This document shows, piece after piece, positions 12,840-52,343 of a stretch of 64,000 nt of DNA. A model generated the notes under the pieces. That model did no database searches. It had not been told where the DNA came from and saw only the letters and a program-made list of their open reading frames with translations. The stretch spans positions 24,282 through 88,281 of the forward strand of contig BQJD01000002.1 in the NCBI GenBank assembly GCA_021604525.1, read 5' to 3'. Source of the DNA: a marine bacterium B5-7. GTDB taxonomy: Bacteria; Pseudomonadota; Gammaproteobacteria; Arenicellales; CAJQKF01. A program made the position numbers and the translations under genes. Each line of letters starts with the position of its first letter. Position 1 is the first letter of the stretch.

Positions 12840-13160
12840 ATGAGACCTCAGTTTCTCCGGCGCAGTCCTTCCCCCATTGCGTTACGGGCGCATCGGGTAG
12901 TTAATCTGAGACAATTCAAACCGGGCGTGCAGAGCGGCGATGCGCCGCACAATAAATTTCGCGAACCTCACAAGATAACGGGATTCTGTAAAATAATCCA
13001 GCCCCGTTAATTGCCGCGCAGTGTATAAAGAAAGTTAATAATCCGTGGATTGTAGAATACATCGATGCGAATCTCTGCGTTATCCATTAACATCGCCTAA
13101 ACCCTTATAATTACAAATGTTTTACGCCACTACACCCTATTTTACGGCGGTATACACCCG

Positions 13161-24859: not shown

Positions 24860-26263
24860 GTGAGGTTATCTGCTGCTGTTGTAGTGTTGTTACATCGATA
24901 CTGCACGGTCAAGTGGATAGCGTGCTTCATGCTGTCATATCTCGGCTGGACTGCACTCGCCGAAGCAGGAACAACAATAACCCGTATGGAGGTAGTGCTG
25001 GAGATCGCACTCGATGGCTCAATGCTCGTCAGGGAAAGCATGACGATTACTGCCGATACGAGTCATTCACCACCCTATCGCGACGTGAGCTTGCACAGCA
25101 TTGACCCAAGTCGGCAACTGCCGATGACCATCGATGTTCTCAACGTCGAGCATTTTGATCAGCTATCACGTTGGCAAACGCAATTCAGCGAAGATGCCAT
25201 GCGAATTCATCTCGCCAATCCATCCAGGAAACTACCGCGCGGGAGACACACTTATGAACTTCTCTATTACGTTGACGGCCATCTGCTTTCCAGTCGTCAA
25301 CACGAGATGCTGCTATGGCGGCCTCTGGGTCCAGGCATGTCATCAGCAGTCCAAAACCTCACCGTCAAAATACGCTTTGCCCGGCCCTTCAAGGGCGATA
25401 CAGTCAAGGTGCTGACAGGCATTAAAGGATCAACAACGACATATCCATTTACGACTCGCATCGGTAACGACGGGACGGTCGATTTAGCCTTCAATAATAC
25501 CCTTGTGGCATATGCAGCGCCGGGTATCGCTGTTGCCTGGCCAAAAGGCCGTCTTGATATTGCTTCCAACAGCGAAACCACTCCCTGGATGAGGCCAGAT
25601 GCGCGTGGCCTTTACTGGGTGACAGCGACGCTGATCATTGCCTTGAGTCTGGTACTAGGCGGACGATTCGTGAGGACGGAACGTCGCACGCTCCTAATCG
25701 GCATCTCAGTACTGGTATCGTTTCTCGGATGTTACTGGGGCGGAAGGATGTTAAGTCTTGATGTTACCCGCTTTAATATTGATTTTTTATTCGCGGTGAG
25801 CCTTCTGCTTACCATCTGGCTGCTGCGAAGCTGGTTGATGATTCCACAAAAAGTTCTTGCTTATGGCACCCTTTCAGCCATGCTGATTCTATTTATTGCC
25901 TGGCGATTGGCAATCAATACATCACCCTGGTACCCACTGCTTGTTCTCGCCCATGTCGATATCTATTTTATCGGTACCCTGCTTGAGGGCTATAAACTCA
26001 AACGACATCCGCGACCCCGAAATTCAAGGCCTGATATTCCTGTGACTGATACAACATTTGCAGATGGTTTGAAAAGAGAAAAAGTCAGACACCAACGTCC
26101 ACAACAAAAACCTTTCAGAACACCGCACCAACAACTGCATCAGCGCCAGGAACCACGCTTCGACCCGGTAGCGGTCAATGAGGGAGACCATGTTTCCGAC
26201 AAAACGGATAGATCTCCTCCAGAGCCGTTTATTCTTCCTCAGGATGTTCGAAAGCCTCGGTGA
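24860..26263 (+). CDS. Membrane protein, DUF2207-like architecture (extracytoplasmic N-domain, several TM helices, basic disordered tail)
   Basis: 467 aa. After a signal/anchor comes a ~230-aa soluble domain, then 4-5 hydrophobic helices (YWVTATLIIALSLVLGG...) and an R/K/Q/P-rich tail. The family assignment is a weak by-eye call. The start is uncertain (GTG 24860 or ATG 24929). Confidence 0.5.
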   Translation: MRLSAAVVVLLHRYCTVKWIACFMLSYLGWTALAEAGTTITRMEVVLEIALDGSMLVRESMTITADTSHSPPYRDVSLHSIDPSRQLPMTIDVLNVEHFDQLSRWQTQFSEDAMRIHLANPSRKLPRGRHTYELLYYVDGHLLSSRQHEMLLWRPLGPGMSSAVQNLTVKIRFARPFKGDTVKVLTGIKGSTTTYPFTTRIGNDGTVDLAFNNTLVAYAAPGIAVAWPKGRLDIASNSETTPWMRPDARGLYWVTATLIIALSLVLGGRFVRTERRTLLIGISVLVSFLGCYWGGRMLSLDVTRFNIDFLFAVSLLLTIWLLRSWLMIPQKVLAYGTLSAMLILFIAWRLAINTSPWYPLLVLAHVDIYFIGTLLEGYKLKRHPRPRNSRPDIPVTDTTFADGLKREKVRHQRPQQKPFRTPHQQLHQRQEPRFDPVAVNEGDHVSDKTDRSPPEPFILPQDVRKPR

Positions 26264-28271
26264 GTCGTTTTTGCACTTCACCAGGCGCCGGTTCGTAGGT
26301 ACTAAGCGCCAGTTCAAAGCTGCCCTCGCCGGCTGTCATGGAGTTCAATCGTGATGGATAGTCGCCGATCTCAGCCATAGGCACTTGCCCGATTATTATC
26401 ATCTGATCGCCCCCAACGCTGTCGGTGCTGTTGACCCGCCCCCGTCGCGAGGACAGATCTCCAGTCACATCACCCATACTTTGGCCTGGTACCGTCACGC
26501 TAATATCCATGATCGGCTCAAGAACCATGGGGCGGGCTTTTGATATCGCATCCAGAAATGCCTTCCGGCCGGCAGAAACGAAGGCGATTTCTTTCGAATC
26601 CACCGGGTGATGCTTGCCGTCATACACGGTCACTTCGATGTCCTGGAGTGGGAAGCCGGCTATAGCACCGCCTTCGAGGACCTGCCTGACACCTTTCTCA
26701 ACCGCGACAATAAGGGGCGCGGGAATAGCACCACCGACGACCTTATTAACGAACTCAAACCCGTTGCCACGAGACAGTGGACGAACCTTGAGAAATACTT
26801 CACCAAACTGGCCTGCCCCACCTGTCTGCTTTTTGTGTCGGCAGTGGCCTTCCGCTTCACGTGCAATGGTCTCGCGATAAGGAACCGATGGCGCGGCTGT
26901 TTCAATCTCTACATTATATTGTTCGGACAGGCGCTCAATGGCGATTCGCAAATGCAGATCGCCAAGGCCACGCAAGATGACTTCGTTAACGTCGGGATTA
27001 CGCTCCAGTTTAAGACAGGGGTCTTCGCCGACCAGTTTGGCCAGTGCATCCATCAGTTTCTGTTCGTCACCATGCTTGGCAGGTGTAATGGCGAGGCCGA
27101 CCATGGGCACTGGTAATTCAAGTGGATGCAGATGGATATGATCTTCATCGTGTGAGTCATGCAGCACGCCGTCATATTCCAGGCTATCATTTTTGGTGAT
27201 TACTGCAATATCACCCGGAATCGCTTGATTCATGTCCTTCAGATCATGTCCGAACGGGCGCAGTATCGAAGTAATTTTAATGGGCTTACGGGCATCGCCA
27301 ATAAATAACTGGGCATCCCGATTGATCACGCCCTGGTGCATCCGGATGTAGGCAATACGACCGATGAACGGATCGAAGGATATCTTGAACACATGTCCCA
27401 GCGCATGGCGGTCGCTATCGGCTATCACCTCAACCGGCTCGGCATCAACACTTTCGCCGTTGTCGAAGCGAGGCGGGTTGCCTTCCGTCGGGTTGGGTAG
27501 CAGGCGCTCGATCACTGTGACCAGTTCACTGACACCGACTCCACTTTCCGCCGAGGTAAAACATACCGGGATCAAATGGCCTTCGCGCAGGGCTTGCTCG
27601 AAGGTATCGTGGAGGCGATCGGCCGCGACCTTGCCCGCCTCCAGATATTCCGCCATCAATTCTTCGTCCACTTCTACGGCCTGATCGACAATCGCGGTAT
27701 GCGCCTGTTCTACGGAAGAAAAATCGGCTGCGCCATCGGGATTGAAAAAACAATCGACAACACGCGTGGCATTGTCGGCGGGAAGATTGAGAGCCAGACA
27801 CTCAGCGCCAAATTCCTCCTGTAGTGAGACATATACGGCTTCAAGATCGACACCCGGTTGATCGATTTGATTGACAATGATCATCCGACACTGATCTCGG
27901 GCTGCCAGCCAGTCCATCATCTTGCGGGTAGTCGGCTCGATGCCCTTGAGCGCGTTGACGACAACCGCAACTGTCTCAACGGCCGGTAACACACTTAAGG
28001 CTGCGCCCATGAAATCAGGATAACCCGGAGTGTCGACGAGGTTGCATCTGAGCGCACCACGATCGAACGACATGACCGATGAAGCGAGTGAATGCTGGTG
28101 TTTCTTTTCAAGCGGATCGAAATCACTCACCAGCGAGCCACGCTCGATCGAGCCTGCCTGGTCAAGGGCGTCGGCGGCGACCAGCACACTCTCGCTGAGA
28201 AGGGTCTTGCCTGATCCAGCATGCCCGACGAGGGCGAGATTACGTATCTGTGAGGTTGTGTACTCCGCCAT
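26229..28271 (-). CDS. Elongation factor G paralogue (EF-G-like translational GTPase)
   Basis: 680 aa. G1 GHAGSGKT, G3 DTPGYPDF, G4 variant NQID. Domains II-V are recognisable (GDLHL, HKKQTGGAGQFG, GFPL.D..V...DG..H.VDS). Confidence 0.85.
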   Translation of the reverse strand: MAEYTTSQIRNLALVGHAGSGKTLLSESVLVAADALDQAGSIERGSLVSDFDPLEKKHQHSLASSVMSFDRGALRCNLVDTPGYPDFMGAALSVLPAVETVAVVVNALKGIEPTTRKMMDWLAARDQCRMIIVNQIDQPGVDLEAVYVSLQEEFGAECLALNLPADNATRVVDCFFNPDGAADFSSVEQAHTAIVDQAVEVDEELMAEYLEAGKVAADRLHDTFEQALREGHLIPVCFTSAESGVGVSELVTVIERLLPNPTEGNPPRFDNGESVDAEPVEVIADSDRHALGHVFKISFDPFIGRIAYIRMHQGVINRDAQLFIGDARKPIKITSILRPFGHDLKDMNQAIPGDIAVITKNDSLEYDGVLHDSHDEDHIHLHPLELPVPMVGLAITPAKHGDEQKLMDALAKLVGEDPCLKLERNPDVNEVILRGLGDLHLRIAIERLSEQYNVEIETAAPSVPYRETIAREAEGHCRHKKQTGGAGQFGEVFLKVRPLSRGNGFEFVNKVVGGAIPAPLIVAVEKGVRQVLEGGAIAGFPLQDIEVTVYDGKHHPVDSKEIAFVSAGRKAFLDAISKARPMVLEPIMDISVTVPGQSMGDVTGDLSSRRGRVNSTDSVGGDQMIIIGQVPMAEIGDYPSRLNSMTAGEGSFELALSTYEPAPGEVQKRLTEAFEHPEEE

Positions 28272-32399: not shown

Positions 32400-32750
32400 G
32401 TGGCCAGCGATTCACTCAAGAGACTGACTTCGAATAACCAGCTTTGCAAACATCTTTACGTCGATGAATCCAGGCTCCATGGCTATGGACTTTTCGCGCG
32501 AAGGAAATTAAAGCGTGGTGAATACATTGGTACGTATGACGGACCAAAAACCAAACGCAATGATATTCATGTATTGTGGGTTGAGGATAAGCCGGGCAAG
32601 TGGTGCGGACGGGACGGTACTAATCTGTTACGTTATCTGAATCACAGCCACAAACCCAATTGCGAATTTGACGGTTTCGATCTCTATACGCTTTGCAAAA
32701 TCAAGGAAACCGAAGAACTGGTGTTCGACTACGGTGAAGATCCTGCCTGA
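32400..32750 (+). CDS. Minimal SET-domain protein (putative protein-lysine methyltransferase)
   Basis: 116 aa with a GTG start behind AAGGAAGG. Motifs GYGLFARRKLKRGEYIGTYDG, NHSHKPNCEF (the NHSCxPN motif) and ELVFDYG (the ELxFDY motif). Confidence 0.75.
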   Translation: MASDSLKRLTSNNQLCKHLYVDESRLHGYGLFARRKLKRGEYIGTYDGPKTKRNDIHVLWVEDKPGKWCGRDGTNLLRYLNHSHKPNCEFDGFDLYTLCKIKETEELVFDYGEDPA

Positions 32751-32853: not shown

Positions 32854-35073
32854 TTATTCCTTGAAAAAGCCGGCCAGTGGCGCAGGTACGCCAATGAGAT
32901 TACCCTGAATCATATTCACACCGAGATCGATGAGACAATCGCGGGTCGACTCGCGCTCGACATGTTCAGCGATAGTTCGCTTCTTGAGCTTGCGGGCAAG
33001 ACTGATGATTGAATCGACGATGGCGAGCTTGATCTCGTCATCCTCAAGATCCTTAACCAACGAGCCGTCAATTTTAAGAACGTCCGCCGGTATCTGTTTC
33101 AGGTACGCATAAGACGACAGTCCGGAACCGAAATCGTCGAGCGCAACTGTACAGCCCAATTCCCGCATGGCACTGAAAAACTGCGCTGCTTTTTCTATAT
33201 TGCCGATGGCTGCGGTTTCGGTTACCTCGAAACACAGTAACGTTGGTGAAATCGAATAATAACGCAGCCGTTCCAGCACGTGGTTGAAGAACGAACCATG
33301 TGACAGCGATTGACCTGACAGATTGATACTGAAGGTATGCGAGGTGCCATTACTGATCCCATAGTCAGCAAGAATCTTGAACGCATGCTCTATAACCCAG
33401 GTATCGAGCCGCAAGCCGTAGTGGAACTCCTCGACCGCGGATATCATCATGCTGTTAGGGACATAACTGCCATCTGACCTGCGCATCCTCAATAGCAACT
33501 CAAGGGATTCGCGATGACTCATCGCATTATCAGCGGCAACAATTTCCTGACCAAAGAATTCAAACAGATCACTGTCCAGTGCTTTCTGGATTCGCGACGC
33601 CCAGCGCGCTTCGCCGTAGTGTCGTTCGACCACTTCATCGTCAGGCTTAAACAGATAAACGCTGTTGCCGCCTATTTGCTTGGCGCTATAGCAGGCTGCG
33701 TCGGCTTGGGTCATCACTTCGGTCACACCGTATGCACCACTGAGTATGGGAACGATGCCGATACTGGTTGTAACACCCAAACGCTCACCGTCGACATCCA
33801 GGCGAAACTTTTCAATTGCAACACGGATACGTTCTGCCAGCGAACGAGCTTCACCGGCCTTCATGCGCCTTAAGAAAAGCGCAAACTCATCACCGCCAAC
33901 ACGGGCGACGATATCCGACGGTCCGAGCAGTGAACTCAGACGGCGGGCAAATGCACATAGAAAGCGATCACCGGTAACGTGACCGCGTGTATCGTTAATA
34001 ACTCGAAATTGATCGATATCGAGCAAACACAGAGTATGCTCGGCACCGCTCTTGGCGCCTTCCTCTATCGCCTCATCCAGACGCTTCATCAGCTCAACGC
34101 GACTGACCAAACCGGTTAATTCATCGTGACCACTCAGATAAGCAAGACGTTCCGCCAACTCATAGGATTCAGTGACGTCTTCACCCGCCAGAAGCAGCCG
34201 CAGCTCGCCGTCCGGCTGACGCAGGGCTCGACCACTGACACGTATCCAGACATGCTCGCCAGAACGAGTATTTAGTAACAGTTCCTGACGCTGTACGGTG
34301 TCTTCGTTACAGCACAAAGATTGAATCAGGTCGCCAAGTTTTCGTCGCTGGTTGGAATGCAACAACTGCAGCACCGGTTGATCGATCAGCTCATCACTGT
34401 TCCAGCCAAGATACTCAGCACCGTAACGGTTAATAGATAGCAGGTCGCCAGCCTCATTCAATGTCATGAAGAACGATGGCGTATCGTTGTAAAAGGAGCT
34501 GTAGCGATGCTCGCTGACACGCAGATTTTCCAGACTGGATTCGAGAACCCGGCCCTGCTCAGCAAGCTGACGGGTACGAAATTCAACCTTTTGTTCAAGC
34601 GTATCGCGCATCTGCTGGATCTGATCCGCCAGCCTTTTGCGATCGAGATGTCGATTGAGTCGGGCGAGTAATATTGGAAAGTTGATTGGCTTGGAGAGGA
34701 AGTCTGTCGCACCCATATCGAGGGTTGCAACGGTATCGCTCAAGGTATCCTTGACGGTCAACATTATGACCGGTAACTCGATTTCATCCCAGCGCTGGCG
34801 AATCCGCCGTAGAGTTTCGAGTCCATCTATGCCGGGCATTATGATGTCCAGCAACACCACATCCGGGCGCCGACTTTCAATCATTGATAACGCGCTGAGA
34901 CCGTCGGCGGCTTCGTAGACACGGAACTCGGAATCCTCGAGAACCGAACGCACCAGAGATCGCGTTGTTGGCCGATCATCGACAATCAGTACCGCAGGAC
35001 GGACCTGCACTACCGGCTTTAGCTCATGTACGGTATCGGTTGTCACTTTTTTATCCCCGAAAAACCTTCCCAA
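32854..35073 (-). CDS. Response regulator with REC-PAS-GGDEF-EAL architecture (c-di-GMP turnover output)
   Basis: 739 aa. REC (VLIVDD...VVLLDIIMPGIDG), coiled linker, PAS (SFFMTLNEAGDLLSINRYGAEYLGW), intact GGDEF (RVGGDEFALF), and EAL domain motifs (FEVTE, DDFGSGLSSYAYLK, KIDGSLV, AEHVE, QG). The start codon is uncertain. Confidence 0.85.
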   Translation of the reverse strand: MGRFFGDKKVTTDTVHELKPVVQVRPAVLIVDDRPTTRSLVRSVLEDSEFRVYEAADGLSALSMIESRRPDVVLLDIIMPGIDGLETLRRIRQRWDEIELPVIMLTVKDTLSDTVATLDMGATDFLSKPINFPILLARLNRHLDRKRLADQIQQMRDTLEQKVEFRTRQLAEQGRVLESSLENLRVSEHRYSSFYNDTPSFFMTLNEAGDLLSINRYGAEYLGWNSDELIDQPVLQLLHSNQRRKLGDLIQSLCCNEDTVQRQELLLNTRSGEHVWIRVSGRALRQPDGELRLLLAGEDVTESYELAERLAYLSGHDELTGLVSRVELMKRLDEAIEEGAKSGAEHTLCLLDIDQFRVINDTRGHVTGDRFLCAFARRLSSLLGPSDIVARVGGDEFALFLRRMKAGEARSLAERIRVAIEKFRLDVDGERLGVTTSIGIVPILSGAYGVTEVMTQADAACYSAKQIGGNSVYLFKPDDEVVERHYGEARWASRIQKALDSDLFEFFGQEIVAADNAMSHRESLELLLRMRRSDGSYVPNSMMISAVEEFHYGLRLDTWVIEHAFKILADYGISNGTSHTFSINLSGQSLSHGSFFNHVLERLRYYSISPTLLCFEVTETAAIGNIEKAAQFFSAMRELGCTVALDDFGSGLSSYAYLKQIPADVLKIDGSLVKDLEDDEIKLAIVDSIISLARKLKKRTIAEHVERESTRDCLIDLGVNMIQGNLIGVPAPLAGFFKE

Positions 35074-35381: not shown

Positions 35382-36320
35382 CTAGAAGCCTCGATCTATT
35401 TGCGAACGAATTAGGTAACGCATGTGATTCAGATCTTTCTCTTCAAGTGACATTGCCGCATCGACCCATGTTTCAACGAAACGCACCAGGCTGTCCCGCG
35501 AGATGGGATGCTCGTTTTGCACTGCACGTCGAAACGAATTCGCCGCTCTCGAATGATTCCGTTCACGGCGAATTATTTTACGAACCTCCTGTTCACCCTT
35601 ACCGCTATCGGCAAGGTAATCGATCACTCCCATCTCATATAGTTCGGATGCGTCATACAGCTTGCCGCTCAAGATCAATCGCTCGGCAGCGGATGCCGAC
35701 ATGCGGCGAGTTAGAAACTGGTAGGCACCCATTCCCGGGAACATGTTAAACAGCACTTCCGGAAGTCCCATTCGCACATGTCTTTCAGCAACAATAATAC
35801 TTGCTGAAAGCGCTGCCTCCATACCACCGCCAAGTGCATTGCCTTTAACCAGCGCAACCGTTGTCATCGGCAACTCGAATGCAGTCGAATTCTCATACAC
35901 CAGGTCAACGCAGTCTTCTGCATAGCGTGAGAGCGACTCGCGATCACCTTCCTTTATCATTCGATAGAAGTAGGCAAGATCGCCACCAAGGTTAAATATT
36001 CCGTCAATATCGGACGTCAGAACGTGATACCGAGGCACTTCATTTTCTCGTCCGCTGGCAATAAGATTTCTCATCTTCAGCGAAAAATCGCTCTGGAAGC
36101 GTCGCAAACTGGTTACCACTTCCGGTGTGAATTTGGCAGGGCAGTCGGATCTCAACCTCCACCAGTGAATGCCAGTTTCCGCTTCAATCTCGGAATCATA
36201 GAATGTCGGAGCCTGACGGTCTTCCAGACGAGCGGATGAGTTAAGAAGATGGACGGTATTGTTGGTCGGGCTGTCGGCATATTCGCTTTCAGCATTGTGT
36301 TCACGGACATTAAGCATCAT
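35382..36320 (-). CDS. rpfF: RpfF-like crotonase (DSF-family cis-2-enoyl fatty-acid signal synthase homologue)
   Basis: 312 aa. It aligns by eye over ~200 aa with Xanthomonas RpfF as I remember it: SDIDGIFNLGGDLAYFYRMIKEGDR, VKGNALGGGMEAALS, RMGLPEVLFNMFPGMGAYQF, TWVDAAMSLEEKDL. Glu168 and Glu188 are 20 residues apart, like the catalytic pair of RpfF. Confidence 0.8.
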   Translation of the reverse strand: MMLNVREHNAESEYADSPTNNTVHLLNSSARLEDRQAPTFYDSEIEAETGIHWWRLRSDCPAKFTPEVVTSLRRFQSDFSLKMRNLIASGRENEVPRYHVLTSDIDGIFNLGGDLAYFYRMIKEGDRESLSRYAEDCVDLVYENSTAFELPMTTVALVKGNALGGGMEAALSASIIVAERHVRMGLPEVLFNMFPGMGAYQFLTRRMSASAAERLILSGKLYDASELYEMGVIDYLADSGKGEQEVRKIIRRERNHSRAANSFRRAVQNEHPISRDSLVRFVETWVDAAMSLEEKDLNHMRYLIRSQIDRGF

Positions 36321-36641
36321 TGTTATTCACCTCATTACATTAAAACGATATCAGCGGTAAGTAGCCTGATAAAAAAAGGAAAATTCCATTTCCTTCAACG
36401 CTAGCTTACTCTATTATCAGTTTAAAAACGTAGTTTCAAGACAACGACAATGGATTGCTTGTTGTGATTACACAGAGCCACTGAAGTGATTTATCATTGC
36501 GCGTCTTAAAAGCGCTCGCTCTTGTTGTAAGCCGATTGAATAAACAGGCTTATCAGCTACCGACACGCAAACTGAAACTGTGACGGCGCTTGACCAAAGA
36601 CTGGTCTTATTGAATAACCACATCCACAAGGATCGACATTG

Positions 36642-36929
36642 ATGCAAAAGTTTGACGTCAGGAATGCAACACCGAAAATTATCCGTGAACATGTCATCGA
36701 ATTGATATCCGAGGTATCCGGATTGTCTGTCGACGAACTCGAACCCGGCATGTCCGTCGCCGAAGACATCGCACCGAACTCCATCGATAGAATTACACTA
36801 TTCATGGCACTTGAAGACGAGTTCAACGAATCCATACCTGAAAGCGAAGTGCGCGACATCATCACATTGAAACAACTCCTCGACTTCGTCGAACTCCGTG
36901 TCATAAGCCTGCGTAACGCCAGCGCCTGA
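36642..36929 (+). CDS. Dedicated acyl carrier protein
   Basis: ~95 aa. VAEDIAPNSIDRITLFMALEDEFNESIPESEV aligns with the AcpP helix II region [32 protein letters not shown], with the Ser of NSID at the phosphopantetheine site. Confidence 0.8.
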   Translation: MQKFDVRNATPKIIREHVIELISEVSGLSVDELEPGMSVAEDIAPNSIDRITLFMALEDEFNESIPESEVRDIITLKQLLDFVELRVISLRNASA

Positions 36930-36996
36930 AACGTCATCGGCATCTGAATACAGCTTCACAAGCCGACCATCAAAGTAGTGGCTTGAATCACGTACC

Positions 36997-38391
36997 GTGG
37001 CAATAGTGAATAAAACTAACGATCCTGTTGTTGTCAGCGGGGTAGGCATCATCTGCGCTCTCGGTCAAGGTGCAAAGCAAGTCTGGAAGGCCATGCTCGA
37101 TGGTCGCTCGGTGTGTGAACCCATACCGCAGCAATGGCATTACTATGGCGATTATCGATCGACCCTGTGGTCGCCGTTGCCAGACATCGATTACACATGT
37201 TATGGATTGAACCGCGCCGATATGATGCGTTTCGACCCGGTAGCCATGATGGCTATCGGCACGGTTCAGGAAGCCCTTGAACATGCCGGGTTCAAGCTTG
37301 AACCAAAAGATTCGAGGGGCTCGCGGCTCCAAATTGCCAACACCAACCCGGCGCGCACGGGGGTTTACTTCGGAACAGGAATAGGCGGCATCAATACCAC
37401 GCTGTCAACACATTCATATCATTCGATGAACCGCATTCGCAATTCTCTTGACTCTGTCGCTAATAACACCAATCAGGATGACGACAAAAAGCTAAAAGTT
37501 GCTATTGAACATATCTCCCTCGCCCGCCGCTTTAATCCACTTGCCGTAACTCTGTTGATGTCCAATGCGGTCGCTGCAGCGCCGGGTGTCAGGTTCGGCA
37601 TAACCGGCCCTTGTAAAACTACAACCGTTGCCTGCGCCTCGGGCACAGCAAGTGTGGCAGAAGGCTTTAGGGCAATACACGATGGCCGAGTCGATCTGGC
37701 GATTGTTGGTGCCAGCGAGTATTTGTTCGATGACTACGGTTCGATTTTTCGTGCCTATGACATTACTGCCGCAATGACGCACGGTATCGACGATCCGCAT
37801 CGTGCTAACCGGCCATTCGACGAAGACCGACGCGGCTTCCTGTTCAGCGAAGGGGGTGCCGCAGCGCTGGTACTTGAACGTGCATCCAGTGCGATATCGC
37901 GAGGTGTTCAGCCACTGGCCGAATTGATAGCCGCTCATGAATCATTTGACGGCTACAACATGCTCGCCATGGAGCCATCCGGTGAGTCAATGGAGAGAAT
38001 GATTCGTGACACAATCGCTGCCGGCGGTATCAAGGCTACAGACCTTGATTACGTTAATGCTCATGGTACCGGTACCGAAATGAATGACGCTATCGAAACC
38101 GAAGTACTCGCTCGCGTGGTTTCAAAAGACACATTAATCAACTCCAGCAAAGGTCTTATCGGTCACACAATCGGCGCCAGCGGGGCTATCGAAGCAGCAG
38201 TAACCGCGCTCAGTATCCGCGACCAACGGGTTCATCCATGTCTGAACCTCGATAATCCCCTTCGAGAACTTAATTTTCCCCGCCAGGCAACGAATGCAAG
38301 GATCGACTACGCACTCAGCCAGTCGTTTGCATTCGGCGGTCATAATGCCTGCCTGTTGATGAAACAATTGCCGAATAACCAGAATTCCTGA
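36997..38391 (+). CDS. Beta-ketoacyl-ACP synthase, elongating KAS I/II (FabF/FabB-like), Cys-His-His triad
   Basis: 464 aa. Motifs VVVSGVGIICALG, active-site TTVACASG, YVNAHGTGT, SSKGLIGHTIGASG, FAFGGHNACLL. It is longer than FabF before the active-site Cys, with an insertion around NSLDSVANNTNQDDDKKLKVAIEH. Confidence 0.85.
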   Translation: MAIVNKTNDPVVVSGVGIICALGQGAKQVWKAMLDGRSVCEPIPQQWHYYGDYRSTLWSPLPDIDYTCYGLNRADMMRFDPVAMMAIGTVQEALEHAGFKLEPKDSRGSRLQIANTNPARTGVYFGTGIGGINTTLSTHSYHSMNRIRNSLDSVANNTNQDDDKKLKVAIEHISLARRFNPLAVTLLMSNAVAAAPGVRFGITGPCKTTTVACASGTASVAEGFRAIHDGRVDLAIVGASEYLFDDYGSIFRAYDITAAMTHGIDDPHRANRPFDEDRRGFLFSEGGAAALVLERASSAISRGVQPLAELIAAHESFDGYNMLAMEPSGESMERMIRDTIAAGGIKATDLDYVNAHGTGTEMNDAIETEVLARVVSKDTLINSSKGLIGHTIGASGAIEAAVTALSIRDQRVHPCLNLDNPLRELNFPRQATNARIDYALSQSFAFGGHNACLLMKQLPNNQNS

Positions 38392-38556: not shown

Positions 38557-40716
38557 GTGAGTCGCCAATGCGATAACATGAATATACTCACCCATTCCAC
38601 GCTCCGTGCCGTGTCACAACTGGTTAACCGGTTTCAATTGGCAGCGAGCAAAAATCTTGCCGAATTGGAGCAGGCAGTACTACGTCTTGTTGTCGGCGGG
38701 ATAATACTTGGCTGGGTCTTTTCTCACGGTCTGGTCGATCAGCTTCAGGACCGCCTGGCAGCAAGTGCCTTTCTCATTGTCGCAACCGGCATATTGATTT
38801 CCCTGCTGCTACAACCGGCGGCCAGTCATGCACGGCGGGTTCTTGCCATTGTTCTTGATATGGCATGCATCACCTACGCCATGCATATAAGCGGACGTCT
38901 CGGCGCACCGGTATTTTTCGCATTTATTTTCGTCACTATCGGCAACGGTTTCAGATTCGGCAATCCATTTCTATTCGTTGCTCTGGCTCTCGGACTGGCA
39001 GGGTTTTCCGTGGTGGTATGGTTTGGCGATTACTGGCGAGCCAATCTGCCCTTTGTCGCAGGCGTTGCCGTCAGCATGCTGATTATTCCCCTGTATGCGG
39101 CAAAATTAATATCGCGCCTGGCCGAAGCGCGTCAGCGTGCAGAACAGGCCAATATCGCCAAAAGTAATTTTGTCGCCAACATGAGTCACGAAATTCGAAC
39201 ACCACTTAATGGTGTCATTGGATTAAGTGACCTCCTGAATAGTACACGGCTCGACAAGGAACAGCAGGAACTCGTCAGCACCATTCAAACATCGGCACAT
39301 ACATTGTTGTACCTGGTTAACGACATACTCGATTTTTCCAAGATTGAAGCGGGCCTCGCCAACAGTGTTAAACGGGAATTCGATCTACGTGCACTGGTAT
39401 CGACTACCAGTCAGATGCTGCGTCCCCAGGCTACCGAAAAGGAAGTTATTCTTAAAAGTAATATCGATTCGACGATACCGGAGTATCTGATAGGTGACGA
39501 CGATCACCTTCGGCAGGTATTGGTTAATCTGATTGGTAATGCCATCAAGTTCACTGACGAGGGTGAAGTTGAAGTACGCGTCATGCGTGAAAGCGGCGAA
39601 GATTTAGAACGGATTCGTTTTGAAGTGATCGACACCGGCATTGGTATTGCCCAGATCGATCAACAGCGCATTTTCGAAAGCTTCCAGCAAGTCGATAACT
39701 CAATGGCGCGTCGTTTTGAGGGAACCGGCCTTGGGGTCACCATCTCCAAACAACTGATCGAACTCATGGGGGGCTTACTGCATCTGCAAAGCTCTCCTGG
39801 CCATGGATCAAGATTCTGGTTCACCCTTGAGTTTGACGAATGTGCAGGTGAGGTTACAGAGCGTGCAGCCAGCAAGAGTGGCAACGTCGTTTTATTTAAT
39901 CGACCCCCATCGCAAAGCGGCAAAGGTAAATCACTAACGATTCTGGTGGCCGAAGATAATGCGGTGAATCGGAAAGTAACATCGATGATCCTTGAGAACG
40001 CCGGACATCAAGTGCAAATGGTATCTAACGGTGCCCAGGCGCTCGAGGCACTTGAGATTCGCGAATACGATCTTGCCATAGTCGATATGCACATGCCGGT
40101 CATGGGCGGTCTGGACGCTATCAAGAATTACCGGATGGTTAATCATATGAAGCGGCGGCTGGTGCCATTTCTGGTGCTGACTGCAAACGCCACCGTCGAT
40201 GCGCGACAGATGTGCCATGATGCCGGGGCGGATGCCTTTCTCACCAAGCCGGTGGATTCCGCATTACTGCTCGATCACGTCATGCAATTGTCAGGATTGT
40301 CCGGTAACGATAGTCGCGGCACAGCCCGGTCCGGGGTTAACCTTGATGAGATTTTCGATCCTGATGTATTAATGGAGCTCGATGCAATTCGCAAGCGACC
40401 GGAGGCTTTGCGCGAACTGATCAACCTGTTTCGCACCGACGCCAGCGAATTGCTGCATCGTCTTCAAGATTCCGTCAGGCGTGGCAGCATTCAGGATTTC
40501 AAGGAAGAGGCCCACGCTTTAAAAGGCAGTGCCGCCAATGTTGGGGCCAATCGAATCGCACAGTGCTGTAACCAGGCTGGCGCCATCAAGCCCGGTGAGC
40601 TAAGTCAACGAGGGCCGGAAATACTCGAGACTCTCGGTAACGAATTTACCCGCTTCGAAACCACCTTCAAAGAATACTTCGAACAAGAAATCGAAGGACG
40701 TCATCTACCCAATTGA
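38557..40716 (+). CDS. Hybrid sensor histidine kinase with RpfC-like architecture: 5-6 TM sensor, HisKA/HATPase, REC, HPt
   Basis: 719 aa. The N-terminal ~190 aa consist of closely spaced hydrophobic helices with short loops. H-box [11 protein letters not shown], ATPase motifs ([18 protein letters not shown]), REC (ILVAEDN...LAIVDMHMP), HPt ([14 protein letters not shown]). The start is GTG 38557 or ATG 38578. Confidence 0.85.
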
Positions 40717-46558: not shown

Positions 46559-46954
46559 TTAATCAGGGCGAGCCGCAAAATCGCCACTACCCATAAACAG
46601 CAATGACAAGCCACCGAACAGATAACAAGCCTGAAGCTCAAGATCCCATCCGCCGGTCTGGTTAAGCAAGGTCAACTGGCCCATATGCACTAGAAAGATT
46701 GCGGCTGTCATGTTAATCGCAATCAACAGTCCGCCAATACGGGCGAACAACCCGATGATCACCATGATGGGGGCTAATACCTCACCTACGTAGACGCCGT
46801 AGGCAAGCAAATCCGGAAGCCCCATTTCGGCTACTTTGCCGGTAATAAAATCCATGCTGCCCGGGTTGGTAATCTTGTCGATACCGTGAAACAGCATGAG
46901 CCCGCCGAGCGATAACCTGAAGATCAATTTTCCCAGTGAGTCGGAAGCGTTCAT
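46559..46954 (-). CDS. DoxX-family membrane protein
   Basis: 131 aa with 4 TM segments. Motif LIFRLSLGGLMLFHGIDKI. Confidence 0.75.
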   Translation of the reverse strand: MNASDSLGKLIFRLSLGGLMLFHGIDKITNPGSMDFITGKVAEMGLPDLLAYGVYVGEVLAPIMVIIGLFARIGGLLIAINMTAAIFLVHMGQLTLLNQTGGWDLELQACYLFGGLSLLFMGSGDFAARPD

Positions 46955-47253
46955 AACTAAAATCTCCTGCCTTGCAAAACGTCACCACCTTGCGTTTATA
47001 TTTTTGTGGGCCGACCGTACGCGCCCGGCAATTATTTAATCACAGTCGCGGCAACAATCCTATCGCCGTACACGGTTAAGTATCAACAGGGGTATGATAC
47101 CCTCTTGTCAAAATGATGTAATTCATGCACATCATTCATGCAAAACCGGTATCAGGCGGGATAATCGTCGGTACTTGGCCGCATAGAGCATATTTATGGA
47201 ATTTATAATGTCACACGAAGCTTTTTTTCGCTTCAGAAGCTGAGGATCCAAGG

Positions 47254-48780
47254 ATGAAGACACTCCGGGTCATTCTTGTCAAACCAAGCAAGTATGCCAG
47301 GGACGGTGCCGTTGAACGGTTTGATCGGGGCTTTATGCCAAACGCAAGCCTCTACCATATCGCATCCCTGACCCCCACTGATATCGACGCAACCCGCATC
47401 GAGTTGCACACCGTGGATGAGTACGTCCGTGCCAATCTTGACTACCTGAAACTGCTATACAAAACTCCCGGCGCAACCACCCTGCTGGCATTTGTGGGTG
47501 TGCAATCGCATCAGTTTCACCGGGCGCTGGATCTGGCCGCCTTCGCCCGCCGTAACGGCGTCGAGCATTGCATTATTGGTGGACCCCATGCGATGACCTG
47601 CGATACTCGCGAAATGCAGGGTCGGGGCATCAGTTTCGCCTTGGGTGAAGCGGAAGTGGTCTGGCACGAAGTATTGTCAGATGCTGCCCGTGGACAGCTA
47701 AAAGACGTCTATAGCTCGGGTCTACGCTGGCAAAAACAACTCGACGGCGCAGTAGTCACACCGCCGAATATTGATGAACTCAATCGCTATGTTTTGCCCA
47801 TGCTTGGTTTGTACCCTGTTCGCGGTTGCCCCTACCGTTGCAACTACTGTTCAGTTGTAAAGATTGCCGGCCATCCGGTGCGCAGTACGGCGATTGAAAC
47901 CACTATGGAGAGCCTGCGCCGCGCTCGTGATGGCGGTGTGCGCTATATCGCCTTCGTGTCGGATAACTTCAACAAGTATCCCCAGGTGGCCGAACTACTC
48001 GAAGCCATGATCGATGCCAACCTTGGTCTGCGCTTTTTCTGCCAGTGCGATACCCATGTCGTCAACCAGCCGGAACTGTTCGATTTACTCAGGCGAGCCA
48101 ACTGTTTCGAGATGTTTATCGGTGTGGAATCATTTAATCGCGAAACCCTGAAGGCGGCAAACAAGTTTCACAACTACCCGAAAAAATATCAAACACTGGC
48201 GGCACTGTGTCGCGACAACGGAATACGCGCGCACTTCTCAAATATCATAGGATTTCCCGAAGATTCCAGGCAAAGCATTCGCGGCGGCCTCGAAATTCTC
48301 AAGGGCTTGAATCCGCAAGTGGCATCGTTCTACGTGCTGACGCCGATTCCCGGCACCGAGCAATACGACGACTACCGGGCCCGCGACCTGATCACCGAAA
48401 CGAATCTGGATCGCTTCGATACGACCTGCTCGGTATGGCGTCATCCGAGCATGTCAGCGAACGAGCTGGAAGACATGTTGTACGAGTGCTATATCGATTA
48501 CTATCGCCACTTGATGCACCAGAAGAACACGGTGGATGAATTTCCCGAATTCACCGTGTTCTGTCGTTACGTCGCCTCACAGCGAATTCATCCCATGGCA
48601 GGCGGTACCGGACGACTCGTTCTTGATCAGGTAAGCGACTACATCGACCTGCGGAAAAATCTCTACGGCTTCGAGCACGCCAGCCTGCCGGACAGCCTCG
48701 GCTTGTCTCCGGAAGATGAATCGTTTAATCGCAGCAGCGATTGGCGCAAGTCCGATAGCAGCGCTGTGGCCACCATCTGA
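47254..48780 (+). CDS. B12-binding-domain radical SAM protein
   Basis: 508 aa. The N-terminal Rossmann-like B12-binding region (LRVILVKPS..., FVGVQSHQF, IIGGPHAM) is followed by the CxxxCxxC cluster GCPYRCNYCS. Confidence 0.75.
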   Translation: MKTLRVILVKPSKYARDGAVERFDRGFMPNASLYHIASLTPTDIDATRIELHTVDEYVRANLDYLKLLYKTPGATTLLAFVGVQSHQFHRALDLAAFARRNGVEHCIIGGPHAMTCDTREMQGRGISFALGEAEVVWHEVLSDAARGQLKDVYSSGLRWQKQLDGAVVTPPNIDELNRYVLPMLGLYPVRGCPYRCNYCSVVKIAGHPVRSTAIETTMESLRRARDGGVRYIAFVSDNFNKYPQVAELLEAMIDANLGLRFFCQCDTHVVNQPELFDLLRRANCFEMFIGVESFNRETLKAANKFHNYPKKYQTLAALCRDNGIRAHFSNIIGFPEDSRQSIRGGLEILKGLNPQVASFYVLTPIPGTEQYDDYRARDLITETNLDRFDTTCSVWRHPSMSANELEDMLYECYIDYYRHLMHQKNTVDEFPEFTVFCRYVASQRIHPMAGGTGRLVLDQVSDYIDLRKNLYGFEHASLPDSLGLSPEDESFNRSSDWRKSDSSAVATI

Positions 48781-48808
48781 CATCCATGCCGACAGCCAGC
48801 CGGTGTGC

Positions 48809-48841
48809 CTGGATCCTGACTCAAAATGTACCAGGATCCAG
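48809..48841. other. 10-bp perfect stem-loop between convergent genes (possible bidirectional terminator element, no T-run)
   Basis: ctggatcctg-N13-caggatccag, read from the sequence. Confidence 0.4.
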
Positions 48842-48846
48842 TCAGG

Positions 48847-49758
48847 CTATTGTGACGAATCGATCGGTGGTAACGATTTCAGATAGCGGATGATCGCATC
48901 GCGATCCGCACTGGTGAGTTTGCCGGTATTGAAATCCACCACTTCAACCATCGAGCCACCAACGAAGTCACCGTCTGGGTACATGCCGATTTCCAGAAAA
49001 TCACGCAGATCGGATTTAGACCACTTACCGATACCGCTTTCACGATCAGGGGTGATATTCGGCACCGCATCACCTTCAGGTCCGTCCGGATTACCAGCCA
49101 ATTCTCGATCCTGATCAAGCGCGCCCATGAAGTTACGTGGGGTATGACATTCATCACAATGACCGAGATGCCGTACCAGGTAGGCACCCCGATTCCATTG
49201 CTCGTCATTGTTTGGGTCGGGAACATATACACCAGCTGTGAAGTTCAGCCACTTCCAGGGACCCAGCAGCCACCTGAAAGACACATACCAGTCAAGTTCA
49301 TGTGGGCGATTCTCACGCCGAATCGGCGGTATGCTATCAAGATAGCGTTTTATCGATTCAAGATCCGTATCGCTTAAGCCGGTATAGGAGGTATACGGAA
49401 AAGCCGGGTAGTAATGACTCCCGTCCGGACTCAACCCTTCTCGAAAAGCGCGAATGAAGTCCTGTTTACTAAATGCACCGATACCCGTTTCCACATCGGG
49501 CGTGATGTTGGGTGTATGGAATGTCCCAAACGGTGTGTCCAGCGCCCTGCCCCCGGCCATGTAGTCGCCTGCATCACCGTCCTCAACCGTATGACAGGCA
49601 ATACATCCACCGGCAGTGACCAGATACTCGCCAGCCACCTCGTTACTGACCTCGTCAGTCTTGGTATCGACTTCACCAGTGCTGGTCTGTGCGCTGACAA
49701 TCGAGCTGAACGCGAGCATCAGGACAGCCTGTATTACAGGAGTTTTTAAACGTAACAC
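48847..49758 (-). CDS. Dihaem c-type cytochrome (dehydrogenase cytochrome-c-subunit-like)
   Basis: Two CxxCH motifs (CIACH, CDECH). The start is placed at an in-frame GTG giving the signal peptide VLRLKTPVIQAVLMLAFSSIVSA/Q. The ORF track extends to 49824. Confidence 0.75.
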   Translation of the reverse strand: MLRLKTPVIQAVLMLAFSSIVSAQTSTGEVDTKTDEVSNEVAGEYLVTAGGCIACHTVEDGDAGDYMAGGRALDTPFGTFHTPNITPDVETGIGAFSKQDFIRAFREGLSPDGSHYYPAFPYTSYTGLSDTDLESIKRYLDSIPPIRRENRPHELDWYVSFRWLLGPWKWLNFTAGVYVPDPNNDEQWNRGAYLVRHLGHCDECHTPRNFMGALDQDRELAGNPDGPEGDAVPNITPDRESGIGKWSKSDLRDFLEIGMYPDGDFVGGSMVEVVDFNTGKLTSADRDAIIRYLKSLPPIDSSQ

Positions 49759-49847
49759 GTTAATGTTGATTCGAGTAAACGTCCACCTGATAACACCCGA
49801 CAGGTTTGATGCGCAGCTAACCACTTATCAAACCTGAATTCGTATCG

Positions 49848-50237
49848 CTATGCAGTTTGTTCCGTTAACCAGTCGTAGGCGCTGTCGCTGTCTTCGAATA
49901 AACGGACTTCGCCCCCGGTAAACCAGCCACCAATTTGCGCTGCCACCTTTTGCCACGACTTGTTACCGACCAAGGCGATTCTCTCGAACTCACGTCCGTG
50001 CTTTAGTCCCAACTTGAGGTCGTCCCATGCAGCCCTGGCCTCAAATCCCTGAAAATCGAGCAAGTCCACCAGCGCACGCACCTTCGGTTGCGACACCTCG
50101 GCTAGCGCGCCTTCCAGCATGGGCACAAACAGTTCGTAATCGGCGTGAGTCAATTTGCCTTCGATCTTGAACCGAACGAATAGTCTGGATTCAATTCGAT
50201 CAATACCAACTGTGATGCCATGTCGCTGATACTTCAT
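49848..50237 (-). CDS. STAS/SpoIIAA-like (SEC14-type) small protein
   Basis: 129 aa. FKIEGKLTHADYE...LVDLLDFQGFEARAAWDDLKLGLKHGREFERIALVG resembles the SpoIIAA-like family. Confidence 0.6.
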   Translation of the reverse strand: MKYQRHGITVGIDRIESRLFVRFKIEGKLTHADYELFVPMLEGALAEVSQPKVRALVDLLDFQGFEARAAWDDLKLGLKHGREFERIALVGNKSWQKVAAQIGGWFTGGEVRLFEDSDSAYDWLTEQTA

Positions 50238-50299
50238 GGATTATGGAGCCTCCTTCAGGTAGCTGTGTGGATAAACCAAATTCCGCGGCATTTATACCT

Positions 50300-51817: not shown

Positions 51818-51893
51818 ATCGACTCCTTTCAGGAAAGGTGATGTAGTGTTGGGAAATGCATCCCGAACGACGACTTGGAAATAGCGATCTACA

Positions 51894-52343
51894 ATGAGAT
51901 TTTGCAATCCAAAGCCAGTTTGGCGCAACCGAAATCAACCGACAAGGGCCAGTCGGGTGTGCTCTATCGAGCCAATTCGCGGCATCAGGACATTATCGCT
52001 GCAAGCAGCCTTTCTCTTGATATTTCAAGTGAGTAGTGCATCGGCAGAACCTGTTACGACACTTGAACTGCTTACCCAAATCGTTTATCGCGTCGAGGTG
52101 GCAAGTTATTGCGGTCTGGTTGACGAGTCGGTCGCGCGGGGGTTTCGGGCCCGTCGCGATGCCATTATCGAAAATGGCAATATTAACGACAACGAAATCG
52201 AAAAAGCCAATGCCAACGCCTGGAAGGCAGCCAACGCAGAATGGCAAAATCGCGGTCTTGGCGGTTTCAAAAACTGGTGTCGTACCGAAGGGCTCGAGTC
52301 TGCCCGGTATTTCAAGGATATCGACGATAGCGAAGGCGACTGA
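51894..52343 (+). CDS. Hypothetical small secreted protein
   Basis: Signal-like LSLQAAFLLIFQVSSASA/EP followed by a helical ~100-aa domain with two Cys. The start is uncertain (ATG 51894 or GTG 51957). I recognise no family. Confidence 0.45.
   Translation: MRFCNPKPVWRNRNQPTRASRVCSIEPIRGIRTLSLQAAFLLIFQVSSASAEPVTTLELLTQIVYRVEVASYCGLVDESVARGFRARRDAIIENGNINDNEIEKANANAWKAANAEWQNRGLGGFKNWCRTEGLESARYFKDIDDSEGD

Follow-up and report, generated by a model that had tools for sequence, protein, structure and literature searches.

Within a 64 kb window from a gammaproteobacterium (the whole stretch of DNA that was analysed), we identified a private acyl carrier protein (ACP) and an elongating-type ketosynthase (KS) which, on balance, we interpret as a dedicated biosynthetic line belonging to a DSF-type cell–cell signalling cassette. 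At the level of sequence comparison, the identities of the proteins, their intact catalytic residues, the non-housekeeping status of the ACP and KS, and the conserved linkage of their genes are all established. The same comparisons provide good support for the two proteins being an extra, dedicated pair that would work with an RpfF-type crotonase instead of serving as housekeeping FAS components. As a whole, the cassette is probably responsible for both the synthesis and the perception of a fatty-acid-type signal of its own.

A divergent carrier protein and a distinct ketosynthase family

The ACP (95 aa; positions 36642–36929, forward strand) was assigned by sequence reading to an ATG start at 36642, one codon past a TTG at 36639 and preceded by AAGGA about 8 nt 5'. 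It matches the Pfam PP-binding domain (28 bits) and carries its phosphopantetheine serine in the motif NSID. A preliminary description of this DNA, made from the letters alone, had recognized an AcpP-like helix II in which NSID replaces DSLD, and this was borne out by alignment to E. coli AcpP (helix II, APNSIDRITLFMALEDEF, compared with the 18-residue E. coli stretch). The phosphopantetheine serine and helices II and III are kept across the cassette ACPs (n = 25). Like housekeeping AcpP, the ACP is acidic and AcpP-like with a conserved serine, but it is only 36% identical to the E. coli protein, lies outside any fab cluster, and scores 42–44 bits against NCBIfam AcpP models with cut-offs of 66–106 bits, including a missed equivalog cut-off for TIGR00517 (42 vs 70.45 bits).

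The KS (464 aa; 36997–38391, forward strand, with an alternative GTG start at 37006) matches both the N-terminal and C-terminal parts of Pfam ketoacyl-synt (1e-30 and 2e-27, respectively). All three motif contexts from which an elongating-type triad had been proposed are present, namely VACASG (Cys213), NAHGTGT (His356), and GHTIGASG (His390), along with Lys385 and the gating Phe446, and the Cys-His-His triad, lysine, and gating phenylalanine are kept in 88 of the 88 members of the KS family. The protein shares this catalytic set with housekeeping FabF, as well as the fold predicted by its AF2 model (TM 0.87 to FabF structures). Unlike a housekeeping FabF, however, it is only 29% identical to the E. 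coli enzyme, sits in no fab cluster, and does not reach the cut-off of any NCBIfam ketosynthase model, FabF and FabB included (297 bits vs a cut-off of 494 for FabF TIGR03150; 286 vs 387 for NF005589). Public data hold more than 120 KS homologues with 45–61% identity across 97% of the length, which indicates that the ACP and KS are real genes and not chance ORFs. A scan of a genome collection with the single KS sequence recovered only two close relatives among its true matches; an archaeal match in that scan was a false lead.

In a neighbour-joining tree with E. coli FabF, E. coli FabB, and six FabF-like KSs as references, the 88-member KS family splits from E. coli FabF and the FabF-like KSs with a bootstrap of 100. 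The tree covers the FabB/FabF part of the phylogenetic placement suggested in the preliminary description. In some related loci, the family KS has as its neighbour a genuine FabF-like KS with 50% identity to the E. coli enzyme.

The active-site cysteine occurs later in the KS than in FabF because of two insertions, together ~45–50 residues: one of 12 residues after HAGF, and one of roughly 30 residues between GIGG and RRFNP. Comparing Cys213 to Cys163 of FabF gives exactly 50 extra residues, matching an initial estimate of ~50, and the Asn/Asp/Lys-rich insertion originally placed around 37420–37525 falls inside the second of these two, an insertion specific to the KS family that we delineated by alignment in the cap region (~37387–37530, forward strand; residues ~131–178). 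Conservation is seen at the start of this insertion (L136, H139), while the middle varies and is rich in Asn, Asp, and Lys. The corresponding cap segment spans 54 residues here and 54–59 in most signalling-linked members; FabF has 25 residues in this segment and FabB has 26. The AF2 model places three helices in the insertion, with pLDDT values of 46–69.

Conserved linkage to a crotonase, a membrane sensor kinase, and c-di-GMP turnover

Gene linkage was counted in 15 loci, selected for a KS score of 400 bits or more and for flanks that each extend 3.5 kb or further. The KS was accompanied by an ACP in 15 of these loci, by an RpfF-family crotonase in 14, by a hybrid kinase bearing a conserved membrane domain in 14, by a c-di-GMP response regulator in 11, and by a radical-SAM enzyme in 10. 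These genes recur in three different gene orders, with a 4-nt overlap of the ACP and KS genes in many loci, and were found across uncultured Proteobacteria from marine, sediment, and groundwater environments, including Sulfuricaulis. That the ACP and KS form a dedicated extra pair with the crotonase had been put forward from the window alone, and this proposal is supported by the non-housekeeping scores, the bootstrap of 100, and the linkage in 14 of 15 loci. A sister group of ACP–KS pairs, on the other hand, has a crotonase or kinase within 10 kb in none of eight cases, and the KS family is therefore not solely a signalling family.

In the window, biosynthetic and sensory genes are interleaved across two divergent operons, one encoding the crotonase and response regulator and the other the ACP, KS, and kinase. 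The 321 bp intergenic region between them (36321–36641, no strand assigned) contains one weak sigma-70-like match (36469–36497) that is not above shuffle expectation; promoter and terminator scans performed no better than on shuffles, and when the window was scanned for Rfam families and tRNAs, none of the matches was an RNA element close to these genes. The reported lack of a nearby reductase, dehydratase, or acyltransferase extends to the whole window, based on Pfam scans of all larger ORFs and tblastn searches with E. coli FabH, FabD, and FabG. Homologues of FabG, FabD, and FabH were likewise absent within 10 kb in ~88 related loci. No HMG-CoA-synthase-like gene was found at the examined cassette loci, none of which encodes more than one crotonase.

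The crotonase (312 aa; 35382–36320, reverse strand) is the putative signal synthase, with predicted dehydratase and thioesterase activities. It passes the broad NCBIfam model NF006452 (315 bits, cut-off 177; 381 bits for Xcc RpfF) but not the narrow RpfF model NF053515 (216 bits, cut-off 550), and its PDB matches include 7zq7 (1.4e-52), Xcc RpfF 3m6m (5e-52), and the Burkholderia structure 5fus (6e-42). The equivalents of Glu141 and Glu161 (Xcc numbering) are kept, GGGME and GLPEVLF align with RpfF, and so do the conserved oxyanion glycines (FNLGGDL / GGG). Overall, the crotonase is 40–45% identical to RpfF (40% for Xcc RpfF), roughly as near as the cassette crotonases are to one another.

Downstream of the KS, the window encodes an RpfC-like hybrid sensor kinase (38557–40716, forward strand) with a multi-TM input region followed by HisKA, HATPase, REC, and HPt domains, as identified from Pfam matches, and with 5–6 TM segments predicted from hydropathy within residues 37–188. 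The input domain shows 30–70% identity among kinases from every cassette type and cassette-linked GGDEF proteins, and this membrane domain co-varies with the cassette. A search with the input domain returned only seven matches, two of which were distant fragments labelled RpfC by JGI automatic annotation. The output module is a response regulator with a REC-PAS-GGDEF-EAL architecture, consistent with c-di-GMP turnover (739 aa; 32854–35073, reverse strand; Pfam Response_reg 1e-32, PAS 1.5e-12, GGDEF 5.5e-38, EAL 3.9e-56). Orthologues occupy the same position in five related loci (L001, L002, L006, L014, and L016). In other cassette types the regulator slot is filled by a REC-HD-GYP protein, with REC-HD proteins in L003, L008, L010, and L094; the window regulator has no HD-GYP domain and does not have this RpfG-type architecture.

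A radical-SAM enzyme as a detached cassette member

The preliminary account of the locus omitted one conserved gene that lies beyond the region it covered, encoding a class-B-like radical-SAM enzyme (508 aa; 47254–48780, forward strand), which we regard as part of the cassette, though physically detached from it, and as a probable tailoring enzyme. In this window it is located ~9 kb from the ACP–KS pair. Over 498 aa it shares 60% identity with the L003 copy, which is found directly 5' of the ACP–KS pair, and the gene holds this adjacent position in at least 25 loci. The family is small and highly conserved, with 76–86% identity among more than 120 clusters. Its CxxxCxxC motif (C192/C196/C199; Pfam Radical_SAM, 82 bits) is invariant, as are further cysteines at C106, C116, C263, C265, C284, and C319.

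The nearest structures to this enzyme are AprD4, TsrM, CysS, MgmA, and OxsB, with AprD4, TsrM, CysS, and OxsB as the best Foldseek matches. It appears to share with class B radical-SAM enzymes (CysS, TsrM, TokK, AprD4) a CxxxCxxC core placed after an N-terminal Rossmann-like domain, the latter suggested by a beta-alpha pattern in what is a poor model (pLDDT 64). It differs from them in its extra invariant cysteines and in falling outside named families, its best NCBIfam score being 90 bits where the cut-off is 600. Homologues are named “B12-binding domain-containing radical SAM protein” at NCBI, and a sub-threshold Pfam B12-binding match (16.5 bits) was obtained for one of them; AprD4, the closest solved relative, is a diol dehydratase that works without cobalamin. 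CysS, for its part, acts on pantetheinyl-tethered substrates. We discarded an assignment to TIGR04072, the radical-SAM family of ladderane-type lipids, on account of its score (71 bits, cut-off 360), and a tblastn search of plasmids with the radical-SAM protein returned only distant class-B enzymes at less than 30% identity. In L002, a relative of the window lineage, the gene is absent at the syntenic site, which suggests that it may be dispensable.

Proposed pathway and comparison with known DSF systems

We propose that housekeeping AcpS would phosphopantetheinylate the ACP and housekeeping FabD would load it with malonate, upon which the Cys-His-His ketosynthase would extend an acyl primer by two carbons on the private carrier. 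The resulting 3-oxoacyl-ACP may then be reduced by housekeeping FabG, and the RpfF-family crotonase would dehydrate the 3-hydroxyacyl-ACP and hydrolyse its thioester to yield a free 2-enoic fatty acid. Given that none of the ~88 related loci provides a cassette reductase, an RpfF-type 3-hydroxy substrate would depend on this putative borrowed FabG. The class-B-like radical-SAM enzyme could alter the ACP-bound chain, for instance by C-methylation at an unactivated carbon, and because of such a modification the signal would be unlike ordinary FAS intermediates. With this partner present, tailoring of a signal assembled on its own ACP becomes a likelier account than a commitment to chain length alone. 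Perception of the product would fall to the hybrid kinase through its conserved membrane domain, and the kinase may in turn phosphorylate the REC-PAS-GGDEF-EAL regulator and thereby change c-di-GMP levels.

In known systems, the precursors of DSF are 3-hydroxyacyl-ACPs drawn from the housekeeping FAS pool, and Xanthomonas FabG2 (XCC0416) is a FAS paralogue devoted to DSF synthesis (PMC5941067). FabG2 represents a precedent for a dedicated FAS paralogue serving a DSF-family signal, but it works as a reductase on substrates attached to AcpP, and its gene is unlinked to rpfF, whereas the dedicated parts here are a carrier protein and a condensing enzyme that are genetically linked to the synthase. 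Compared to the Xanthomonas Rpf/DSF system as a whole, the window encodes a crotonase of the RpfF family with the same catalytic residues and a kinase with the architecture of RpfC (multi-TM, HisKA, HATPase, REC, HPt). A c-di-GMP output is common to both, and most related cassettes carry an RpfG-like REC-HD-GYP protein. The cassette differs by the addition of the private ACP, the specialised KS, and usually the radical-SAM enzyme, by a window crotonase below the narrow RpfF cut-off, by a REC-PAS-GGDEF-EAL regulator in place of REC-HD-GYP, and by having no visible rpfB-like acyl-CoA ligase gene. The BDSF system of Burkholderia and Cronobacter (RpfF_Bc, RpfR) similarly combines an RpfF-family crotonase (5fus, matched by the window crotonase at 6e-42) with a PAS-GGDEF-EAL protein, but it lacks the ACP, KS, and radical-SAM enzyme. 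Moreover, the window PAS-GGDEF-EAL protein bears an N-terminal receiver and accompanies a membrane kinase, and perception therefore probably proceeds via the kinase.

A more tentative possibility, which we hold to be somewhat short of an even chance, is that the cassette represents a new branch of fatty-acid signalling that combines a private ACP, a specialised KS, radical-SAM tailoring, RpfF-like release, and a cognate membrane-domain receptor. Given these first four components, the signal would differ chemically from the cis-2-enoic DSF family. Products of such a branch could, for example, be radical-methylated, otherwise modified at an unactivated carbon, or of a 3-oxo or methyl-ketone type. 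The membrane domain of its receptor would be one common to kinases and diguanylate cyclases.

Alternative explanations

FabF and AcpP are the top-scoring named models for the KS and ACP, and the KS fold is FabF-like, as would be expected if the pair were simply what a divergent genome uses for housekeeping as its AcpP and FabF. We reject this explanation, to which we give almost no credence, as the scores are 297 vs 494 bits for FabF and 42 vs 70 bits for AcpP, identity to the E. coli proteins is 29% and 36% despite the gammaproteobacterial host, no fabH, fabD, or fabG neighbours are present, the KS clade stands apart from FabF with a bootstrap of 100, and the pair is linked to a crotonase and a kinase in 14 of 15 well-flanked loci. 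A set made of ACP, KS, and crotonase also superficially resembles a polyketide beta-branching cassette (ACP, KS-S, HMG synthase, ECH1, ECH2), in which the KS would be a non-elongating, decarboxylating or priming enzyme. Decarboxylating KSs have Ser or Gln in place of the active-site Cys, however, and this Cys is found in 88 of 88 members of the KS family; with a single RpfF-like crotonase and no HMG-CoA-synthase-like gene at the examined cassette loci, this highly improbable scenario was rejected as well.

Two further explanations retain the cassette but change its product. The four enzymes might instead make a non-signal lipid or secondary metabolite, such as a surfactant or a membrane-lipid block, with the two-component system merely regulating this synthesis or sensing something else. 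The sister ACP–KS pairs without crotonase or kinase are in line with this idea, and the combination of radical SAM, ACP, and KS is reminiscent of unusual-lipid clusters (including the weak TIGR04072 match, 71 vs 360 bits). We nevertheless consider it rather unlikely, based on the tight link, across three gene orders, to a kinase whose membrane domain is of one particular kind and co-varies with the cassette, the fusion of this same domain to GGDEF proteins in cassettes, and the interleaving of biosynthetic and sensory genes in two divergent operons here. In addition, RpfF-family enzymes release free acids, which fits diffusible products. Alternatively, the same cassette could operate with no reduction step, the crotonase hydrolysing or decarboxylating a 3-oxoacyl-ACP to give a beta-keto acid or methyl ketone signal. 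The absence of a FabG-like gene from the window and from ~88 related loci, across large evolutionary distances, is compatible with such a route, and both thioesterases and decarboxylases are known among crotonase-fold enzymes. Yet the crotonase strictly retains the oxyanion glycines and the two catalytic glutamates of RpfF, and it is 40–45% identical to RpfF, a true dehydratase/thioesterase; it is also common for specialised ACP systems to rely on FabG and FabD from the housekeeping pathway. We thus judge this route to be unlikely, and favour the assembly line with a borrowed reductase outlined above.

Implications for signal discovery

The current view is that RpfF, acting on its own, takes DSF-family signals out of the housekeeping pool of fatty acids. 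If the private assembly line proposed here is correct, signal synthesis would in many environmental bacteria be kept apart from the making of membrane lipids, and carriers of the cassette would probably make a structurally new signal. The cassette would then offer a compact four-gene biosynthetic set with a matched receptor domain that could be expressed heterologously for molecule discovery, and either the KS clade or the radical-SAM gene, given its high conservation, could be used as a marker for such systems in metagenomes, where these cassettes are at present annotated only as “FabF”, “ACP”, and “enoyl-CoA hydratase”. The combination of radical SAM, ACP, KS, crotonase, membrane sensor kinase, and c-di-GMP regulator is widely conserved and apparently undescribed: the full-text literature surveyed, which included papers on DSF in Leptospirillum and acidophiles, contained no account of rpfF being linked to a KS, an ACP, or a radical-SAM gene. 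In L. ferriphilum, salt co-induces rpfF and “a radical SAM protein”, an observation that concerns co-induction only and not gene adjacency.

A ketosynthase and acyl carrier protein distinct in sequence from those of housekeeping fatty acid synthesis

The window, part of a MAG of the unclassified gammaproteobacterium 'marine bacterium B5-7', encodes, on the same strand, a 95-aa acyl carrier protein (ACP; 36642-36929; Pfam PP-binding, 28 bits) whose helix II, set against E. coli AcpP, is APNSIDRITLFMALEDEF, and a 464-aa ketosynthase (KS; 36997-38391; ketoacyl-synt N and C, 1e-30 and 2e-27). Alignment of the KS with E. coli FabF, FabB, and ten relatives recovered all the elongating-type triad contexts named in the preliminary description, i.e. 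VACASG (Cys213), NAHGTGT (His356), and GHTIGASG (His390), along with Lys385 and the gating Phe446. The ~50 aa by which this description had the KS exceed FabF before the active-site Cys come to exactly 50 (Cys213 vs FabF Cys163), and are accounted for by two insertions, one of 12 residues after HAGF and one of ~30 between GIGG and RRFNP, which includes the Asn/Asp/Lys-rich stretch already noted. Within this second insertion, L136 and H139 near the start are nearly invariant and the middle is variable; an AlphaFold model (overall pLDDT 85.7) places it in the cap region as three low-confidence helices, and outside the insertion superposes on FabF structures (TM 0.87). NCBI annotates a 432-aa KS starting at Met33, but because this start would drop positions 36997-37092 and with them a conserved N-terminal strand (G15, G17, and W30 do not vary across the family), we prefer the longer ORF, probably starting at GTG 36997 or GTG 37006.

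A housekeeping AcpP/FabF role fails direct tests. The KS reaches 297 bits on the FabF equivalog (cut-off 494) and falls below the cut-off of all other KS models, the ACP reaches 42-44 bits on AcpP models (cut-offs 66-106), and identities to the E. coli proteins (29% for KS-FabF, 36% for ACP-AcpP) are very low for housekeeping proteins in a gammaproteobacterium. Phylogenetic placement, suggested at the outset, sets the KS family apart: in a neighbor-joining tree whose references were E. coli FabF, E. coli FabB, and six FabF-like KSs, 88 family members split from FabF and the FabF-like KSs with a bootstrap of 100. A true FabF-like KS, sharing 50% identity with E. coli FabF, adjoins the family KS in several related loci. 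No FabH, FabD, or FabG homologue was detected across the 64 kb of the window or up to 10 kb from the KS in ~88 related loci, and Pfam scans of all larger window ORFs likewise returned none, consistent with the initial view that no reductase or acyltransferase lies nearby. Judged by their sequences, the ACP and KS are thus not housekeeping proteins. A beta-branching role also fails direct tests, the active-site Cys213 of the KS being intact.

A recurrent cassette with an RpfF-like crotonase

The ACP and KS are, as first described, embedded in a signalling locus, here resolved into two operons diverging from a 321-bp spacer. One comprises a crotonase (35382-36320) and a REC-PAS-GGDEF-EAL regulator (32854-35073), the other the ACP-KS pair and a hybrid kinase (38557-40716), so that each combines biosynthetic and sensory genes. 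In the PDB, the crotonase best matches 7zq7 and 3m6m, the latter Xanthomonas RpfF (E about 1e-52), followed by Burkholderia RpfF, and the catalytic residues of RpfF, Glu141 and Glu161, as well as its oxyanion glycines, are kept in the window protein and in 18 cassette homologues. It scores above the cut-off of NF006452, a model matched by Xanthomonas (Xcc) RpfF at 381 bits, and under that of the narrow Xanthomonas-type RpfF equivalog, and its 40% identity to Xcc RpfF is about that between cassette crotonases of different types. Sequence comparison thus places the window crotonase in the RpfF family. The crotonase of one related locus (L008, 9457-10347) reads GLPDVLFNLLP-ICAY where others have GLPE(V/I)LFN(L/M)FPGMGAY, with Asp in place of the second catalytic Glu plus a one-residue deletion; either degeneration of this copy or faulty assembly may account for the difference.

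The hybrid kinase has the same architecture as RpfC. Its N-terminal region, with 5-6 TM segments, is 30-70% identical across kinases of all cassette types, and this multi-TM domain is also fused to GGDEF in cassette-linked proteins of five related loci (L010 10601-11767, L031 15307-16455, L036 8245-9213, L017 12247-13434, and L094 16924-18069), which suggests a single ligand-binding membrane domain serving two kinds of output.

The window KS has >120 relatives (45-61% identity, about 454 aa). Locus contexts were obtained through ten look-ups by protein and a metagenome scan covering 80 loci, with gene content assigned by BLAST. The cassette recurs in three gene orders: the window type (regulator<, crotonase<, ACP>, KS>, kinase>; clade bootstrap 98); radical SAM, ACP, KS, crotonase, then kinase< and REC-HD-GYP<; and radical SAM, ACP, KS, REC-HD-GYP, kinase, then crotonase<. 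Linkage was counted only in loci where the KS is flanked on each side by 3.5 kb or more, split at a KS score of 400 bits. All 15 loci at or above this score carried the ACP, 14 the crotonase, 14 the kinase, 11 the regulator, and 10 the radical-SAM gene, vs 8, 0, 0, 0, and 0 of the eight loci below it. This lower-scoring sister group retains the ACP alone of the cassette partners, so the KS and ACP together form a unit that is employed elsewhere too.

A radical-SAM member of the cassette

The preliminary description had missed one component, a radical-SAM enzyme whose gene immediately precedes that of the ACP in most related cassettes (25 loci or more). The window orthologue (47254-48780, + strand; 60% identity over 498 residues) lies 9 kb from ACP-KS, a detached arrangement also seen in the close relative L005. 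In another related locus, L002, the gene is absent at the syntenic site, where DoxX and aldehyde-dehydrogenase genes (11698-14146) have just a 77-aa ORF between them; in the window (46559-51928), radical-SAM and cytochrome c genes occupy this interval, which makes the radical-SAM gene a variable insertion within the lineage. This radical-SAM family is a small one (some 15 full-length clusters at 50% identity; named members from Sulfuricaulis, Betaproteobacteria, and Gammaproteobacteria MAGs) and strongly conserved (76-86% identity among >120 clusters). Its members combine a CxxxCxxC motif with six further invariant cysteines that could form an auxiliary cluster. The enzyme reached no cut-off among named NCBIfam families, its closest counterparts by sequence and fold (weak model, pLDDT 64) are the class-B-type AprD4, TsrM, CysS, MgmA, and OxsB, and the B12-domain signal in the family is sub-threshold.

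Proposed pathway and alternative products

Of the readings considered, the one with most support is that of a signalling cassette of the DSF type (DSF being the signal family made by RpfF) with its own biosynthetic line, and we consider it reasonably probable that the ACP-KS pair is dedicated to making its signal. Sequence and gene context establish what the genes encode, that their active sites are intact, that the pair differs in sequence from housekeeping proteins, and that the cassette genes are linked. For each step of the chemistry, we infer that the private ACP would be loaded via housekeeping AcpS and FabD, the KS would perform committed elongation, a borrowed FabG would reduce the 3-oxoacyl-ACP, and the RpfF-like crotonase would dehydrate and release the product, with the radical-SAM enzyme tailoring the ACP-bound chain. 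The kinase would then perceive the signal through its conserved membrane domain, and the regulator would change c-di-GMP. A 3-oxo or methyl-ketone product, raised as an alternative at the outset, is kept alive by the missing reductase, which is absent from all loci examined, and the product may also be a non-signal lipid under control of the two-component system.

Read as a DSF-type system, the cassette resembles RpfF/RpfC-type systems but adds a line of its own, made up of a private ACP, a KS, and a radical-SAM enzyme. Canonical DSF synthesis draws 3-hydroxyacyl-ACP from the FAS pool, and FabG2 of Xanthomonas is the sole dedicated FAS paralogue reported for it (PMC5941067). In the full-text literature searched, whose coverage is incomplete so that an earlier description is possible, we found no account of a cassette linking an ACP, KS, or radical-SAM gene to rpfF.

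Other features of the window and related loci

Sister ACP-KS pairs (L055-L093, e.g. L077 9414-14579, L066, L073, L080, and L081; 38-44% identity), without crotonase or kinase nearby, often have a genuine FabF-like KS (50% to E. coli FabF) ~2 kb downstream, with unannotated ORFs between. The window cassette adjoins a 116-aa SET-domain protein (32400-32750, +), found at the same position in related loci L001 and L002; SET domains are uncommon among free-living bacteria. Elsewhere, a 664-aa protein (3666-5660, +) combines a CARDB domain with three hemopexin repeats (112 bits), which are rare among bacteria, and a 680-aa EF-G paralogue (26229-28271, -) with all five EF-G domains is encoded away from any ribosomal-protein operon setting within the window.
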